DNA of 64,000 nt from Candidatus Heimdallarchaeota archaeon (GTDB taxonomy: Archaea; Asgardarchaeota; Heimdallarchaeia; Heimdallarchaeales; Heimdallarchaeaceae). The stretch spans positions 44,632-108,631 of the forward strand of contig DXJF01000114.1 of the NCBI GenBank assembly GCA_019057375.1, read 5' to 3'. Position numbers and translations under genes: made by a program. Shown here piece after piece: positions 9,855-33,144 of this stretch (its first letter is position 1; every line of letters begins with the position of its first letter). Below the pieces are notes generated by a model. That model searched no databases, was not told the origin of the DNA, and saw only the letters and a list, made by a program, of their open reading frames with translations.

Positions 9855-10844
9855 TCAAACTAGTTTCTGTTCTTTCATCCAGTTAAAAGCATCCTGAAAA
9901 GAATCTTTAATAGAATATTCTGGTTCAAAACCCACTATTTGGTTAATTTTTTCTAAACTATATACTCTTGTTCTACTGAATTGATTTACTCTTCTACGGG
10001 ATATTTTTGGTGTTGATTTTTTTATTTTAGCCATTGTTTCACTAAAAACAGCTGCAATTATCGCTAGTGGGAAGCTTATTTCTTCAAATATAGGTTTTTT
10101 TCTGGTAATTTCTCCGACCATTTCAAATAACTCCCGAGCAGTGCAAGTAGAACCAATAACATGAAAAGCTTCACAATTAGCTTTTTCTGTAGCTCCACAC
10201 ATAACTAAAGCTCTAGCTACATCCTCATGATGAACAAAAGAAACAACAGCTTTACCAGTTCCAACAAGAGGTATCTTTCTTTCCTTCAAAAGGTAATCAA
10301 AAACTTTGGGTGCTACTTGTCTATCCCTTGGACCAACAATGTAAGGTGGTCTAACTGCTGATGCAAAAAAACCATGCTCTTGTGCATACTTGAATATTAA
10401 TTTCTCTGCTATCCATTTAGTTTCATGATAAGGATGGTCAGATTTTTTTGGATAATCCTCTTTTATTGGTTGGTTTTTTACCTTGTAACCATAAATGCCA
10501 ACTGTACTTACATGTAAGAATTTTTTCCCATTGTTCTCAACAAATGCTTCAAGCAAATTCTTTGTACCGGTTACATTAACATCATAATATAATCTCGAGG
10601 GAATATTATCTCTAGCTTCTCCTGCAGCATTATAGACATCATCTATTCCGTTTAACGCTTTTACTAGAGATTCTTTATCAGTTAAATCTCCTTTAACGAA
10701 ACTGATACCTAGTTCTTCTAAAGCAGGATATTTTTTGTCTGACCTAGTTAATGCTTTGATTTCTGTCTTTGGATATTCTTCTCTTAATTTCTTAGCGATA
10801 AAATATCCTACTGCACTAGTTGCTCCAGTTACCAATATAGTCAT
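9855..10844 (-). CDS. NAD-dependent epimerase/dehydratase
   Basis: ILVTGATSAVG, HVSTVGIYG, YxxxK (YHETK), VRPPYIVGP. Confidence 0.9.
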   Translation of the reverse strand: MTILVTGATSAVGYFIAKKLREEYPKTEIKALTRSDKKYPALEELGISFVKGDLTDKESLVKALNGIDDVYNAAGEARDNIPSRLYYDVNVTGTKNLLEAFVENNGKKFLHVSTVGIYGYKVKNQPIKEDYPKKSDHPYHETKWIAEKLIFKYAQEHGFFASAVRPPYIVGPRDRQVAPKVFDYLLKERKIPLVGTGKAVVSFVHHEDVARALVMCGATEKANCEAFHVIGSTCTARELFEMVGEITRKKPIFEEISFPLAIIAAVFSETMAKIKKSTPKISRRRVNQFSRTRVYSLEKINQIVGFEPEYSIKDSFQDAFNWMKEQKLV

Positions 10845-26587: not shown

Positions 26588-27130
26588 ATGAATAAGGAAT
26601 ATGTTCTTGGTCTATTGCGAACAACTTTGAACAACTATGTAGTAGGCTGTCTTTCGGGATATTTTATCACGCATATAGATCCCTTCAATCTTACAGAAAC
26701 TATTGAGATGAGAAACCAAAATGCTCCAGAAGTATTTATTATACTTGATCTAAAACCAATAAAAGAATTGTTACAATTTCCTGATAAGAGAAGTAAATTA
26801 CTTAATGAACACATGAAATCTATACTCAGAAGTTTCGTTAAGGATATGTTTGAAATTGTTAAACTTTATACTAAAGAGACTAAACAATTTAATAAAATGA
26901 AGAAAGCTAATTGGTACGATTTTGTTCGTATCATTAGAAATTGCTTAGCCCATGATTTCAAATTAAGATTCAACAATCATGATAAGAAAACGCTTCCTGT
27001 TAAATGGCGGGATAAGGAAATTACTTTAACAATAAACAACCAACTATTAAATGTACAAATCTTGAATGAAGCTAATGCAATTGAGCTTTATAGTGAAATA
27101 TTTGCATATGTGGAAACTGAATTGAGCTAA
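26588..27130 (+). CDS. Putative HEPN-domain protein
   Basis: FVRIIRNCLAHD contains RxxxxH in a helical context. Confidence 0.55.
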   Translation: MNKEYVLGLLRTTLNNYVVGCLSGYFITHIDPFNLTETIEMRNQNAPEVFIILDLKPIKELLQFPDKRSKLLNEHMKSILRSFVKDMFEIVKLYTKETKQFNKMKKANWYDFVRIIRNCLAHDFKLRFNNHDKKTLPVKWRDKEITLTINNQLLNVQILNEANAIELYSEIFAYVETELS

Positions 27131-27272
27131 TTTAATCTTTTTCAATAGATTATTTCGTCTTATCTTAGTAAAACACTGACACCGAATTCTTTGTTCAAGA
27201 CTATTATAACAAGATTTATCTATTTATTTCATATTTTTTTAATTTAATTAAGAAATATGATGCTGAATATCT

Positions 27273-28097
27273 ATGACTGGAGAAACAATGGATGATATGA
27301 ATATAAATCAATTTGAGAAAGATACCTTACTTTTCCTCATTCAAGATGTTCTTGATGCTTTAGATGATTTGGAGGACTTAGAAGATGATGAGGTTTTTCA
27401 AGTAATTTACAGAAAAAAAGACCTTTCCTCAGAACAGTTTTATAGAATGCTGAAACTCATTGAGTTTTGTCAAGATAGCATATCTCCTTTCCCATTTTTC
27501 AGTAGAAAAGAAACTGAAGAAAATGGAATCAGAACAATTAGAATTAGATCTTCAGATGAGACAGGTATTTTTCATACATGTTACCTTGAATTTATTTTCA
27601 TAATTGGTGATGATTATGTTATTATCCCAGAAACCTGCGGTTGTAGAAAAGAGAATTTTGATTATACTCTTCCTTCTGTATTGTCCTTAGATATGTATAA
27701 GATTTGGTTATGTATTAGTTTACATGAAAACACAACAATTGAATTCAAAGATAGGGTTAATTCTCTTCTCAAAATGTATGTTCAAAGCAACTTCGTTGAA
27801 GCTTGGACACATATAGGTTTTATAGCTGAAACTCTGACAAAAGAGATTTATCTTAAATCCTACCCTAATAAAACTCTCACAGATACAAATAACATTAAAT
27901 GGAATAGTCTTCTCAAACAACTTGCAAATGATAAGAACCTTGCTGATATTGAACATTATGCACTTCTTTTAGATTCTCTCAGACCAATTAGAAATGATGT
28001 AATTCACAACGATTACAAACCAACATCTGAAGATACAGAATTAGGACTTCTAAGCTTAGATCGATTATTCAAGTTTTATGTGCAGAAATACAAATAA
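27273..28097 (+). CDS. Protein with a C-terminal HEPN/DUF4145-like domain
   Basis: AETLTKEIY...LRPIRNDVIHNDYKPTSEDTEL; N-terminal CGC...C possible metal site. Confidence 0.6.
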   Translation: MTGETMDDMNINQFEKDTLLFLIQDVLDALDDLEDLEDDEVFQVIYRKKDLSSEQFYRMLKLIEFCQDSISPFPFFSRKETEENGIRTIRIRSSDETGIFHTCYLEFIFIIGDDYVIIPETCGCRKENFDYTLPSVLSLDMYKIWLCISLHENTTIEFKDRVNSLLKMYVQSNFVEAWTHIGFIAETLTKEIYLKSYPNKTLTDTNNIKWNSLLKQLANDKNLADIEHYALLLDSLRPIRNDVIHNDYKPTSEDTELGLLSLDRLFKFYVQKYK

Positions 28098-28257
28098 TAA
28101 TCCTCTTCTCTACTACTATGTTGATATTGGGTGTTCTCCATTTGTCACTTTTTAGCTTCTTAATTTTTTGAGTCCTGTACCTATTAACTTTTGCTCGTGA
28201 TGTGTTTTTATATGGTTTTTTAGTTGAATTGGTGAGTATAACCACTATTACTTCAAA

Positions 28258-29922
28258 GTGACAGTTATGGAAAAAACTATTCTCCTTGGATATGAATATG
28301 ATTACGGTTTAACCTCTAATGAAATTTCTATAGATATTGGTGAACTCCTCTATAATGTTGAAATCTATGGAATGATTGGAAGAGGAAAAACTCGCTTGGT
28401 CTGCAGTATTATTCAACATCTTTTTCACAATAAAGTACCAAGTTTGATCTTCGATATCAAGGGGGAATATGCTGCAACTTTTGCTACTGAACCAAATGTA
28501 GAGATTTTTACAATTGGTGCTCCTCATCCACTCTGTATCAATCTTTTTGATACCAAAGATGAAGATGATGTCAGTGGAACACTCTTAGTTATTGAAGAGA
28601 TGATGGTTTCTTCTAACCAAGAATTCAGTCCTTCGATGAAAAACCTCTTTGAAACAGCTCTATTCCTAACCCACAAAGCTGAGGTAAGAACACTAGAGAC
28701 CTTTGTTGAAAACCTAATTGCTCTTGCTAAGAAAACTAAACAGATCAAATCAATACAACATACCTTAGATGCTGTTCTTAATAGATTAAATTACATCTTA
28801 AATCCTATCAGTTTTGAGATTTTAGGAGTCTCTCAAACAACGTTAAACTTCGATATGTTAGAGCAAGGAAAAAGCATAATTCTTGATCTTAGCCAATTTC
28901 AAAAAAGGGCAGCTAGACCGTCGGATATCTACCTTATTTGCAATCTTATTTTGAAACTATTTTACAAGTATGCATCCTCTAAAGAACTAACCAACAAGTT
29001 ACGTTATGTTGTGGTTTTAGAAGAAGCGATTAACATTATACCTCACTTCTATAGAAAACAGAGTTCAGCATCCTTGATTACAGCTGAAAACAACTTCTTA
29101 CTTGGTAGAAGTCTAGGTATTGGTCACATAACTATATCTCAAATGTGGAATAGTGTGAGTAATGTTGTTCATGCAAATTCCTCAACTAAGATTGTTTTTC
29201 GTTCAGGTCAGGAAATAGAGAAAATTGCTAAAGCTCTAAATCTTCAAGATTTTTATTTCAAACGTCTCCAACAACTACCAATTCGTCATTGTTTCCTCTG
29301 GAAGGATGGTCAAGAATATGTCAAAGAGATGACTACAGTTAATTTTACTCTTGAACCACTCAAATACGACCATTATTTGTTATTTCTTAGAAGAAAATAC
29401 CATTCTTCTACTTATCCTCTATTATTTAGCAACTTTATTGATATGCGAACAGCACTCTACGATAAACTAACCAATACCAAGAAAACCAAACAAAAAAAGA
29501 AGGAGAAACCAGTTGAAAATAACCAAATATCTAAGAAAAATCCAGATTCTCAAAAGGAAATTACAAGTAAAGTTGAGCAATTCAAGAAGATATTTTCAGA
29601 AGAAATCAAATTTCAATTAGATGATGTTTGTTTCACCTTTTGTTCTTTAAGCAAAGACAAGAAGAAATGTATGAAAATTAGAAAAGATGCAGAAAGAGTC
29701 AACTCGTCTCTACTGAAGAGATTTACAGAGTATGAGATTAAACAAGCTATACTTGAAAAATCTCAGATATCAATAGATGAGCTGCTAAAACAAGTTCTTC
29801 TAGAGAACAAGCTGTCATCTAATAGTCAAGTACTATTTTGTGCAAAGAGAGAATTAATCAATTTTTTGATGAGAAGTGACCAAGAATTATCCTTCAATCT
29901 TTCTAACAATTCAAAAAAGTAG
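28258..29922 (+). CDS. HerA/DUF87 (FtsK-HerA superfamily) ATPase
   Basis: Walker A GMIGRGKT, IFDIKGEY, Walker B VVLEEA, arginine-finger region GRSLGIGHITISQ, NSSTKIVFR. Confidence 0.85.
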   Translation: MTVMEKTILLGYEYDYGLTSNEISIDIGELLYNVEIYGMIGRGKTRLVCSIIQHLFHNKVPSLIFDIKGEYAATFATEPNVEIFTIGAPHPLCINLFDTKDEDDVSGTLLVIEEMMVSSNQEFSPSMKNLFETALFLTHKAEVRTLETFVENLIALAKKTKQIKSIQHTLDAVLNRLNYILNPISFEILGVSQTTLNFDMLEQGKSIILDLSQFQKRAARPSDIYLICNLILKLFYKYASSKELTNKLRYVVVLEEAINIIPHFYRKQSSASLITAENNFLLGRSLGIGHITISQMWNSVSNVVHANSSTKIVFRSGQEIEKIAKALNLQDFYFKRLQQLPIRHCFLWKDGQEYVKEMTTVNFTLEPLKYDHYLLFLRRKYHSSTYPLLFSNFIDMRTALYDKLTNTKKTKQKKKEKPVENNQISKKNPDSQKEITSKVEQFKKIFSEEIKFQLDDVCFTFCSLSKDKKKCMKIRKDAERVNSSLLKRFTEYEIKQAILEKSQISIDELLKQVLLENKLSSNSQVLFCAKRELINFLMRSDQELSFNLSNNSKK

Positions 29923-30310
29923 GTTCTTCCTCTTCTCCCCATAGCAGTCAACTTTCTCTATTCTTTTTCATAACTCTTCTTCATTCTAATTATTCTTTTT
30001 AGAATGATTTGGCACAAAATTTCTGTGGTGCTAATAATATCAACCTCATTCTAGATTCCTGATAGGCAAGAATTACAACCAAACCTGTAATTCTTCGCTT
30101 TTCACCTAAAAGGAAAAAGGAGATGAGAAAAAAGAATAGGTAGTTCTTTGAGATCTTATTCGAATTCCTGAAGCAATTTTACACGTAGTACTTATCATTG
30201 GTTCCTCTACTGGTTTCAAACTGAGAAGAGAAGAGGATCCAATGATTTTCGACAATTCGAAAAGAGTTTCAGTGTTTATAATACACTTCCAATTTCAAAA
30301 GGTGAAAACC

Positions 30311-31846
30311 ATGAAAATTGAAGAAATTAATGAACAAAAAGAACTACAATCAAAAGTCAAGAAACATGGAAAACATGGAGAAGTCAAAAGCATGTCTCAA
30401 GCACCATTAGTTACATTCTACGAGGTTGTCCCTTTGAGAATCAAGACGGAATTAATGTCTGTGAGAGAGTGCGAAAGGTTGCGAAGAATAACCGAACGAG
30501 ATACCAGAATCATTCGAGACTACCTCAGAATCATCAAACATAACGAGGAGAATATTCTGCAAAAAAACGGCAAAGTCAATACGTCCCTGTTGGATAAATT
30601 GACTTTAACCACATCGAAGAATACGAAGAACAAGTTACGGACATCTGTTCCTCATGACTTGAAGAAACGTTATCCCCGTTGCTCTTTTGATGAATTCCAA
30701 GAATGCAGAGACAAAGCTATCTGGACTTATGAAAGCTGGAAAGCACAACAAGATGTTTCCAAAAAGGAACTGAGTAGACCAAAGTTTAAGAATAAAACCC
30801 CCCGACCCTTGTTCAAAGGAACAGAAGGCAGAGGTACATTTCAGGTACATTCCAAATCTGATAATACTGATGCTAGACTTTGGCTGGAGTTAAGGGATTC
30901 TCTTGATACAAAACGATCTGGCAAACGAACCCATCAGAGACTATGGCTACCATTAGCTTACTCACCTTACCACGAAAAGAGGTTGAAACTAGAGAACATC
31001 AAAATGATGGAACTAGTACGCAAATCCAAAGAACAACAGTGGTGGGCACATTTCACCCTCCAGTATTCTGTCTCATGTTACCAATCCACCCTTCCACCTG
31101 CAGTGTTAGGAGTAGACCTGGGAATAAAGAAGACAGCTGTTGCAGTCTTACTTACCCCTACAGGCAAAGTAATTATGGATGAAATCCGCTTCATCGTCAA
31201 TAAGGAGAGACAGTCTAAGATATGGCAACTTGAAAACCAAATCGAGGATACTCAGAGAAAGTTGAACAAAAGTCTCAACAACGGTCAGCACACTAAACAG
31301 CTTAACACTACACTCTTCCGTCTACGTAGAAGACGACGTTCTATTATAGAACAAGAACTGGGGTATGCTGTTAACCAATTGGTTGATTTCACCCTTCAGT
31401 TGAAGAAGCGTTACAATCTGTTTGTGTCTGTTGGCTATCCTAAGAACATTCAGAAAAGTCAACCTCGAGGTAGTGGAAACAAATCTCATAGAAGACGATT
31501 ACATAAATGGTGTTACCGTCTTTTCATTACTAAGCTGAAATATAAGCTTACTAGCTATGGGTTTGAACCTCTTCGAGTAGTAGCTGTTAAGGAGAGCGAC
31601 ACCTCTAAAACATGTTCTAGATGCAATTCTACAAACACTACACGTACAGGACAAGGACAGTTCAATTGCCACGATTGCAACTACGTACTAGACGCTGACT
31701 TGAACGGAGCAAAGAACATAGGAAAGAGGTTGATTCGATATGTATTGAAATCAAAGTTCAATTATATATTCGATATATTAACAAAAGAATGCTATCCACT
31801 AAGACACTACAAGTCTTTCCTGCCCTTAGGTCAATGGCTTAAGTGA
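30311..31846 (+). CDS. tnpB: TnpB-like RNA-guided endonuclease with a rearranged RuvC site (ORF track starts at 30242; ATG 30311 follows GGTGA)
   Basis: RuvC-I VLGVDLG; RuvC-II VSVGYP (Gly instead of Glu); VKESDTSKTCSRC...CHDC Zn finger; RuvC-III DADLNGAKNI. Confidence 0.9.
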   Translation: MKIEEINEQKELQSKVKKHGKHGEVKSMSQAPLVTFYEVVPLRIKTELMSVRECERLRRITERDTRIIRDYLRIIKHNEENILQKNGKVNTSLLDKLTLTTSKNTKNKLRTSVPHDLKKRYPRCSFDEFQECRDKAIWTYESWKAQQDVSKKELSRPKFKNKTPRPLFKGTEGRGTFQVHSKSDNTDARLWLELRDSLDTKRSGKRTHQRLWLPLAYSPYHEKRLKLENIKMMELVRKSKEQQWWAHFTLQYSVSCYQSTLPPAVLGVDLGIKKTAVAVLLTPTGKVIMDEIRFIVNKERQSKIWQLENQIEDTQRKLNKSLNNGQHTKQLNTTLFRLRRRRRSIIEQELGYAVNQLVDFTLQLKKRYNLFVSVGYPKNIQKSQPRGSGNKSHRRRLHKWCYRLFITKLKYKLTSYGFEPLRVVAVKESDTSKTCSRCNSTNTTRTGQGQFNCHDCNYVLDADLNGAKNIGKRLIRYVLKSKFNYIFDILTKECYPLRHYKSFLPLGQWLK

Positions 31847-32010
31847 TTCTGCAAAGAATACATCATTTAGCAATATTTGATGTGCGAGGTCGAGAATCTG
31901 TCGTTTCACTTGTTTGACTGATTCAGCAATGAGTGCCCTTTATCAGGAGATGAATCCTTTGAACAGATTTACAGCAATGTAAATGTTCCAGAAAACTAGT
32001 ACTGTAACTT
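31846..32010 (+). ncRNA. Candidate omegaRNA (TnpB guide scaffold)
   Basis: Four GCAA-capped hairpins on the tnpB sense strand directly after the stop codon: 31846-31859, 31860-31883, 31921-31934, 31961-31988. Confidence 0.7.
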
Positions 32011-32331
32011 ATGAAATATTCTATTTTTCATTTTACAGTTATGCCTCCTTGCCTACCCTTAGCTACGCTAGTTTAGGATGAGTCTTGAAAGGATCTATTT
32101 GAAAATCGTAAGGTTTTTGAAGAGAAAATAACTCATTAAAAGTTTTTTGTTTCGTTTCCATTCTCTTTCCTTTTCCTTTTTTTTCTCTGTAAATGCTTAT
32201 GTTTTGATTGATTTTAATAGAAAAAAGATAAGGCATAATAATAACCTTGCTTGCTTTTTTTCGATTTTTTCTTCTATTTTTGTTCCGTTTCTTTCTATTT
32301 CTTTTTAAATTTATTTTAAATTCTCTTTACC

Positions 32332-33144
32332 ATGCCTTCTCCTTCCAGAAAAAACCCTTGGTCTTCTCCTGAATGGAAAGCTCTCGTGGAACGTCTTCGC
32401 AAAGATTATTGTGAAATCTGTGGTTCTCGTACTCCTCCTTTCACTCTTCATCATGAAAAACCCCTTCTTCCCTATTCTTCCATTCGTACTCAAGTTGCAG
32501 AATCTCTCTTTTCTGAGCTTCTCGATAAAGGTGAGTTAAATACTGATCTCATTCAAGTTACTATTCGTGATTCTTGTCCTGAATGTGATTCCATCAATGT
32601 TCAAGGTCCCCGTTCTACTATCTCTCCTCCCTTTTACTGTGGTCGCTGTTATCATCGTTTTGATCATCCTGTCAAAAAGAAAGTTAAAAACGATAAGGCT
32701 CTTCGTCGTGACTTTTTTCAGAGATTTAAGGACGAAATCGATAAAAGAACTCAGATAGAACGAGATAAACAATCTGCTTATTATCTTTCTGGCAAAGATG
32801 TTATTACTGTTTGTTCAAGATGTCACCTTCCTACTGAACAGGGCAAGGTTTTATGCAAAATCTGTAATCACCACTTTCACAACGCTCGTTTCAATCAATG
32901 TTGGGAATGTTTCATCAAGATGAAGATTGCTGATGGACAAGTTAAATGTAAATTTTGTGAATCAAAATTTCATTCCTCTGATGAACCTGCTTGTGATGAA
33001 TGTAGTATTTTAAGATCCACTATCTACTGCCAAGAATGTAATCAAACCAAATATTCTCTTTCTTGCTATTGTTATAATTGTGAAACATCCATCTGCGAAG
33101 ATTGTTCTTCAAAACATAGTGAAAGGGGACATGATGTTGTGTAA
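32332..33144 (+). CDS. HNH-endonuclease-like protein with several zinc fingers and a C-terminal B-box-like domain
   Basis: W...R...CEICG...LHH and, after an insertion, VITVCSRCH; two CxxCxxxFHx6CxxC repeats; terminal CxxC-x10-CxxC-x4-CxxC-x3-H-x4-H. Confidence 0.7.
   Translation: MPSPSRKNPWSSPEWKALVERLRKDYCEICGSRTPPFTLHHEKPLLPYSSIRTQVAESLFSELLDKGELNTDLIQVTIRDSCPECDSINVQGPRSTISPPFYCGRCYHRFDHPVKKKVKNDKALRRDFFQRFKDEIDKRTQIERDKQSAYYLSGKDVITVCSRCHLPTEQGKVLCKICNHHFHNARFNQCWECFIKMKIADGQVKCKFCESKFHSSDEPACDECSILRSTIYCQECNQTKYSLSCYCYNCETSICEDCSSKHSERGHDVV

Follow-up and report, generated by a model that had tools for sequence, protein, structure and literature searches.

A tnpB gene from an Asgard archaeon raises the question of what becomes of an RNA-guided nuclease when a glycine occupies the position of its RuvC-II glutamate and another glutamate appears farther along the chain. 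Is such a protein an active nuclease, has it lost its catalytic function, and does the rearrangement, which eukaryotic Fanzors have in common with it, place it near the origin of those enzymes? The gene lies in a 64,000-nucleotide stretch of DNA from Candidatus Heimdallarchaeota archaeon (contig DXJF01000114.1), and this whole stretch is referred to here as the window. A sequence-only reading of the window had described a TnpB of an Asgard-like archaeon, and the host is indeed a Heimdall-group Asgard archaeon. We consider it very likely that the protein is an intact TnpB of the alternative-glutamate class (Ealt / TnpB2 / RIIr) with an omega-RNA, and that it belongs to an Asgard-specific multicopy family outside the Fanzor/pro-Fanzor lineage. 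The relocation of the glutamate is already known from other enzymes, and the linkage of this TnpB to an ATPase gene is the only feature for which no published description was found.

Active-Site Residues and Family Identity

30311..31846, + strand: tnpB open reading frame, 511 aa; predicted catalytic residues D269, E428 (alternative Glu) and D463; G375 at the canonical Glu site; zinc-finger cysteines C435, C438, C453 and C456

Translation of 30311-31846 on the plus strand yields 511 amino acids with zero stops. An alternative in-frame ATG at 30242 leads to a longer reading frame; comparison with paralogues favors the start at 30311, as does a GGTG/GGAGG site that precedes it by 6-8 nt. D269 lies within LGVDLGI (codon 31115), G375 within VSVGYPK (codon 31433), E428 within AVKESDT (codon 31592), 53 residues C-terminal of G375, and D463 within LDADLNG (codon 31697); the residues and codons named in the sequence-only reading match this translation exactly. 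All elements of a split RuvC nuclease are present, namely three acidic residues and a CxxC...CxxC zinc finger between RuvC-II and RuvC-III, with the glutamate at its alternative position six residues ahead of the zinc finger. A profile alignment built from 33 homologues places G375 opposite the catalytic Glu of AsCas12f (QMEDL) and E428 opposite a Pro of the same enzyme (IDPQYTSQRC), which bears out the earlier proposal that a Gly has taken the RuvC-II Glu position and a Glu the position of the canonical Pro.

Conservation of the alternative glutamate, a point that the earlier reading had left to be checked, is strict. D269, G375, E428, D463, and the four zinc-finger cysteines are invariant in the 33 homologues at identities down to 26%. 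Two very large protein searches provided a broader set of 211 relatives with a length of at least 320 aa, and the four positions read D-G-E-D in 168 of these, D-E-P-D in 28, and D-E-A-D in 3. Across the 211, a Gly at RuvC-II is always paired with the downstream Glu and a canonical Glu always with Pro or Ala, and hybrids carrying Gly with Pro or two glutamates number zero. Judged from these alignments, the residue pattern is far beyond chance.

The assignment to TnpB, also made in the sequence-only reading, holds for an intact protein. The NCBIfam model guided_TnpB (NF040570) gives 102.1 bits against a cut-off of 100, and the Pfam Cas12f1-like TNB domain is matched at 1e-16 with 61 bits against a cut-off of 26. 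An AlphaFold2 model built on the 33 homologues has a mean pLDDT of 84, and the structures that Foldseek ranks highest against it are AsCas12f and OsCas12f (E about 1e-15), ISFba1 TnpB, CnCas12f1, and ISDra2 TnpB. Within the model, G375 closes strand 369-376 and E428 directly follows strand 423-427. The placement of E428 just after strand 423-427 agrees with the site reported for Ealt enzymes, beta-5, and in RIIr enzymes the Glu is described as having moved within the RNase H fold, leaving beta-4 for beta-5 (PMC10691335).

The RuvC site would accordingly be composed in the model of D269 from RuvC-I, E428, and D463 from RuvC-III, with G375 predicted to occupy the canonical RuvC-II glutamate position. 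Precedent for such a site comes from the archaeal Ealt enzyme TvTnpB of Thermoplasma volcanium, which is active in a guide- and TAM-dependent manner without collateral cleavage, and from mutagenesis of ApmFanzor, in which the alternative Glu is essential for catalysis (PMC10530073). Loss of the RuvC-II glutamate might instead have left a catalytically dead protein that acts as an RNA-guided binder or regulator, as the Gly at the canonical position would lead one to suspect and as the existence of inactivated TnpB clades illustrates (PMC10691335). We regard this outcome as most improbable given that the family never varies in the two Asp residues or the compensating Glu, that these occur strictly together with the Gly, and that the same arrangement is experimentally active in TvTnpB and Fanzors (PMC10530073). 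Homology and the published work on the same active-site type indicate that the Asgard TnpB is most likely an active RNA-guided nuclease. Members of the family are predicted nucleases of ~500 aa, and collateral activity may be absent from them.

Relation to Fanzors

The sequence-only reading had taken Gly/Pro with an alternative Glu to mark Fanzors and their closest TnpB relatives. The rearrangement is in fact found in many prokaryotic clades. Jiang et al. defined "TnpB2" as a monophyletic TnpB group with Gly/Pro and the alternative Glu (Jiang et al. 2023, PMC10530073), and Altae-Tran et al. counted two major clades, along with eight large branches, in which RuvC-II is altered (Altae-Tran et al. 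2023, PMC10691335). Among these, RIIr-6 and RIIr-8 are almost exclusively archaeal, and RIIr-5 shows the change from Glu to Gly together with a compensating Glu (PMC10691335). The relocated glutamate by itself is therefore no Fanzor signature but a known trait of a large prokaryotic class.

A more specific fingerprint is available from the work of Yoon et al., in which Fanzors and pro-Fanzors combine DPG in RuvC-I with Ealt, and Ealt enzymes whose Pro is replaced by a hydrophobic residue group apart in a clade of their own (Yoon et al. 2023, PMC10711439). The RuvC-I motif of the Asgard protein is D269-L270-G271, and DLG is invariant in the family. The published pattern for non-Fanzor Ealt enzymes, D{P}G x(120,160) E x6 CxxC x(12,18) CxxC x(4,8) D (PMC10711439), matches residues 269-463 of the TnpB, and the DPG version of the pattern fails.

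A special relationship of the Asgard TnpB lineage to eukaryotic Fanzors, or an ancestral position with respect to them, would have some appeal, as the two have the Ealt rearrangement in common, the hosts belong to the archaeal lineage closest to eukaryotes, and Fanzor2 (9b0l) is a significant structural match to the model (E 3e-11). However, that match stands at rank 17 in Foldseek with 16 Cas12f/TnpB chains above it, and Fanzor1 is absent from the best 50 matches. When run against structure chains, the family profile finds Cas12f/TnpB chains at 1e-19 to 1e-23 and ISDra2 TnpB at 1e-3, and no Fanzor chain is matched at E up to 10. DPG does not occur in any of the 168 Ealt relatives, and the IS607 serine TnpA link is absent as well. 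The DLG motif, the fit to the D{P}G pattern, and the profile that fails to match Fanzors leave the Fanzor-origin reading unsupported, and we regard a special kinship as highly improbable; the relevance to Fanzor origins claimed in the earlier reading falls with it, and a tempting link is removed. In a FastTree phylogeny built from 198 RuvC cores, Ealt and Ecan proteins are resolved into separate groups except for three long Ecan proteins; the tree contains no Fanzors and thus has no bearing on Fanzor ancestry.

Downstream RNA and Predicted Guide

The preferred reading of an Ealt TnpB outside the Fanzor lineage includes an RNA encoded at the 3' end of the gene, and the evidence for this RNA comes from comparison of the family copies.

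31847..32136, + strand: predicted omega-RNA (reRNA) scaffold, 290 nt, with conservation stop and covariation
32137..32156, + strand: predicted guide segment (TAAAAGTTTTTTGTTTCGTT...), variable DNA 3' of the scaffold, with a length assumed from known TnpBs

The source genome holds seven copies of the Asgard TnpB family, and DNA similarity runs from ~30003 to 32136 among these and a dozen copies in other Heimdall MAGs. Conservation across the 19 copies ends exactly at 32136, after ...TAACTCAT (the conserved right end in its longer form reads ...GAGAAAATAACTCAT), and sequences are unrelated beyond this point. The consensus fold of the 290 nt contains 43 pairs, and 97.5% of cells are paired in comparison to 29-46% when the partners are slid. 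Compensatory change occurs at 13 pairs versus 4.1 in shuffles, and not one of 500 shuffles reaches the observed value. A closing helix is formed by an invariant ATGAGT (31929-31934) that pairs with the terminal ACTCAT (32131-32136). No known RNA family was identified by Rfam in 29800-32400. The sharp end of conservation, the variable flank, and the helices supported by covariation underlie the omega-RNA reading, and on the strength of these sequence comparisons 31847-32136 fits an omega-RNA scaffold with a flank-derived guide from 32137.

The TnpB protein would then bind an omega-RNA, ~200-290 nt long, whose template is the 3' end of the tnpB gene itself, with the scaffold predicted to end at 32136. 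The 16-20 nt after the scaffold would serve as the guide, and matching DNA would be cut beside a short motif (TAM). With the guide-RNA scaffold and its boundary now defined, the family is directly testable. The guide segment is unrelated from copy to copy, and the 23-mer at this position in the window occurs only once in the genome when up to three mismatches are allowed; as it has no second match, no empty or target site was found in the genome.

A pyrimidine-rich tract begins at about 32162. This tract was considered as part of the element, with the guide internal to it, and rejected upon finding that its distance varies from 10 to 56 nt and that it is missing from three of the loci (L026, L028, and L029). 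The tract more likely marks an insertion context, or else it serves the RNA as a fortuitous terminator.

Several smaller observations concern the same region. The copy on contig C80 (L009:8884-8960) has a 22-nt predicted guide, CCCCAGAATTTACTTACATCTT, that recurs in near-identical form ~25 nt on, past the pyrimidine tract, and the copy on contig C72 (L010 around 10039-10077) has a second AAACTCAT 37 nt past the scaffold end. In addition, a hairpin at 31846-31859 (ATTCT-GCAA-AGAAT) begins with the final base of the stop codon. It reads ATTCC-...-GGAAT in other copies, a compensatory change, and lies there within a C-terminally extended reading frame.

Linkage to a HerA/VirB4-Like ATPase

The sequence-only reading had described the TnpB as standing alone. 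This description has to be given up, as the gene is linked to an upstream HerA/VirB4-like ATPase gene in a recurring, bounded unit.

28196..28257, + strand: left end of the unit, in front of the ATPase gene; promoter-like motif CGTGATGTGTTTTTATAT...
28258..29922, + strand: HerA/VirB4-like P-loop ATPase, short form, 554 aa; Pfam DUF87/HerA at 7e-15
29881..30002, + strand: spacer between the ATPase and TnpB modules, not common to most copies
30003..30310, + strand: conserved 5' region of the TnpB module, with hairpins at 30061-30103 and 30195-30245 and, preceding the ATG, a ribosome-binding-like GGTG
ATPase family loci: window 28195-29922; L009:4012-6761; L102:4928-6602; L103:4934-6599

The unit spans 28195-32136 (3.9 kb), comprises the ATPase and the TnpB, and recurs with unrelated flanks. 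Over its full length it has 85% identity to an ENA contig (L102) in which the neighbors differ, and similarity to L102 (over 3,983 bp) and to a further locus, L103, begins at the left end with unrelated upstream flanks. A long form of 4.9 kb, with a long ATPase and TnpB, occurs at 90-93% identity in the source genome, another MAG, and a JGI metagenome; it has sharp ends on either side, and its flanks are unrelated across genomes. The ends of the unit are TCTTGATGTGTTTTTATAT... on the left and ...TAACTCAT on the right, and the left-end motif also heads the long form in L009, L010, L019, and L031.

The short ATPase lacks the ~350-aa N-terminal domain of its ~890-aa paralogues. It aligns at 63-68% identity with residues ~354-890 of two of these, 892 and 910 aa long, which lie upstream of the TnpB copies on C80 and C72. 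ATPases of ~890 aa are likewise found upstream of TnpB in other genomes. A model of the N-terminal domain of the long ATPase shows a weak likeness to the VirB4/TrwK N-terminal domain (E 1e-4, TM about 0.4). The domain had been modeled in search of a hidden transposase or nuclease, an idea that was set aside. As a side observation, the ATPases form an Asgard-restricted family with long (~890-950 aa) and short (~533-554 aa) members and one promoter-like left end.

The junction between the two modules varies. The two conserved blocks abut in most copies and are ~130 bp apart in the window, and L102 has its own, poorly conserved spacer at this position. Conservation sets in at ~30003-30018 in all copies. 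According to RNAalifold, the two long, strongly conserved hairpins in the 300 nt before the tnpB gene have stems of 15 and 18 bp with a few compensatory changes, and they could represent 5' UTR structure or DNA hairpins for a recombinase.

Two small genes lie upstream of the unit at 26588-28097, one with a weak DUF4145 (HEPN-like) match, and in L102 a minimal nucleotidyltransferase occupies the corresponding place. Because the 26588-28097 genes lie outside the unit and a different gene takes their place in L102, a "HEPN plus HerA module" does not constitute a conserved set.

Mobility and Possible Roles of the Unit

No linked transposase was found that could account for the spread of the family. 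Y1 TnpA is absent from the 89%-complete genome, and its four serine recombinases are all on contigs other than those carrying copies of the Asgard TnpB family. No TnpA was seen next to homologues at the loci examined, and with no linked TnpA of either type the locus does not qualify as a resident of an IS200/IS605 or IS607 element. The window contains no CRISPR-like tandem array, and the single Cas1 of the genome is on contig C8. The statement in the sequence-only reading that neither tnpA nor CRISPR is nearby thus stands. The ends of the element likewise gave no sign of a left-end TAM or terminal inverted repeats: no motif is common to the left flanks, and the left end, read as its reverse complement, does not give the right end. 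Identity among the copies in the genome amounts to only 63-85%, and recent transposition is therefore not supported. The aloposons of Heimdallarchaeum were considered as a carrier and set aside, as these are defined by giant genes and tRNA integration with no involvement of TnpB.

How the ATPase relates to the nuclease allows for speculation in two directions. The ATPase, the Ealt TnpB, and the omega-RNA might together make up a previously undescribed Asgard-specific unit in which the ATPase replaces TnpA or works physically with the nuclease. We put this forward as a tentative idea with a small chance of being correct; if true, the unit would represent a new route of TnpB mobilization or a new ATPase-coupled RNA-guided system. 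The recurring ATPase link in the absence of a transposase is the part of this work that could open something new.

In the main rival reading, a domesticated TnpB and its ATPase might form a host or defense-island module, for example an RNA-guided nuclease that a hexameric ATPase loads or powers, and the TnpB would not be a transposon maintenance factor. The recurrence of the two genes as a single bounded unit in several genomes, in both long and short forms, would agree with such a role, as would the lack of a linked transposase, the age of the intragenomic copies suggested by their low identity, and the HEPN-like or nucleotidyltransferase genes in the neighborhood. HerA-type ATPases also partner nucleases in known defense systems, and the PADLOC matches to HerA and mad8 are weak. 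The broader family is harder to reconcile with domestication, however. Many members are found solo between housekeeping genes, and many copies keep only a 3' stub of the ATPase gene or none of it. L103 has a short ATPase without TnpB. The guide region differs at each locus, as expected of flank-derived guides, and the family is multicopy. Domestication is thus a doubtful explanation for the unit, and the reading of an intact, RNA-guided Ealt TnpB is preferred for the nuclease itself.

Comparison with Known Systems

By published description, TvTnpB is a close counterpart of the Asgard TnpB, being archaeal with Gly/Pro at RuvC-II, an alternative Glu ~45-53 residues downstream, a zinc finger, and a 3' RNA. 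TvTnpB differs in that it is shorter and resides in an IS605 element with a Y1 TnpA, whereas the Asgard proteins (~480-560 aa) are without TnpA, Asgard-specific, and often linked to the HerA/VirB4-like ATPase. The RIIr clades, some of them archaeal, show the same catalytic rearrangement (PMC10691335). The Asgard TnpB groups reported in the same study are linked to aCas1, but no Cas1 adjoins any copy here; an aCas1 link of the published kind was accordingly dismissed, with the sole Cas1 on another contig.

Fanzor2 and the pro-Fanzors resemble the Asgard family in the Ealt residue six positions before the first CxxC, in the TnpB fold, and in a right-end RNA (PMC10711439; 9b0l). Fanzors and pro-Fanzors carry DPG, are associated with the IS607 serine TnpA, and are found in cyanobacteria, eukaryotes, or giant viruses. 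In contrast, the Asgard family has DLG, no TnpA, Asgard hosts, and no profile match to Fanzor chains. Cas12f (AsCas12f 8j12, OsCas12f 9nzq, and CnCas12f1 8hr5) gives the best matches both to the sequence profile (1e-21 to 1e-23) and in Foldseek, and the Asgard TnpB is similar to it in size and has the WED/REC/RuvC/zinc-finger layout in common with it. Cas12f nevertheless has the canonical RuvC-II Glu and a CRISPR array, whereas the Asgard TnpB has Ealt, no array, and a single predicted guide derived from the flank.

Distribution and Neighboring Observations

An abundant, Asgard-specific Ealt TnpB family is thereby documented, with multiple copies in complete Heimdallarchaeum genomes. Genomes of the Thor lineage, like those of the Heimdall lineage, carry it in several copies. 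All named hosts among the matches are Asgard archaea, including Heimdallarchaeota, Thorarchaeota, Sifarchaeum, and other Asgard MAGs. Heimdallarchaeum endolithica has at least 13 loci and H. aukensis at least 9. At E 1e-30, a match is found in 49 of 201 sampled genomes of the phylum, mainly in two families (13/21 and 31/43 genomes).

The source genome contains ~29 TnpB-like matches in total, which fall into several families and include eight canonical ones of ~420 aa. In loci of the Thor lineage (L064:2-3763 on the minus strand, L071, L074, L075, and 15 others), a conserved reading frame of more than 1250 aa lies divergently upstream of the TnpB homologue. This giant frame has no match in Pfam, PDB sequences, or ESM-Atlas; its representatives extend off the locus and are 25-77% identical among themselves.
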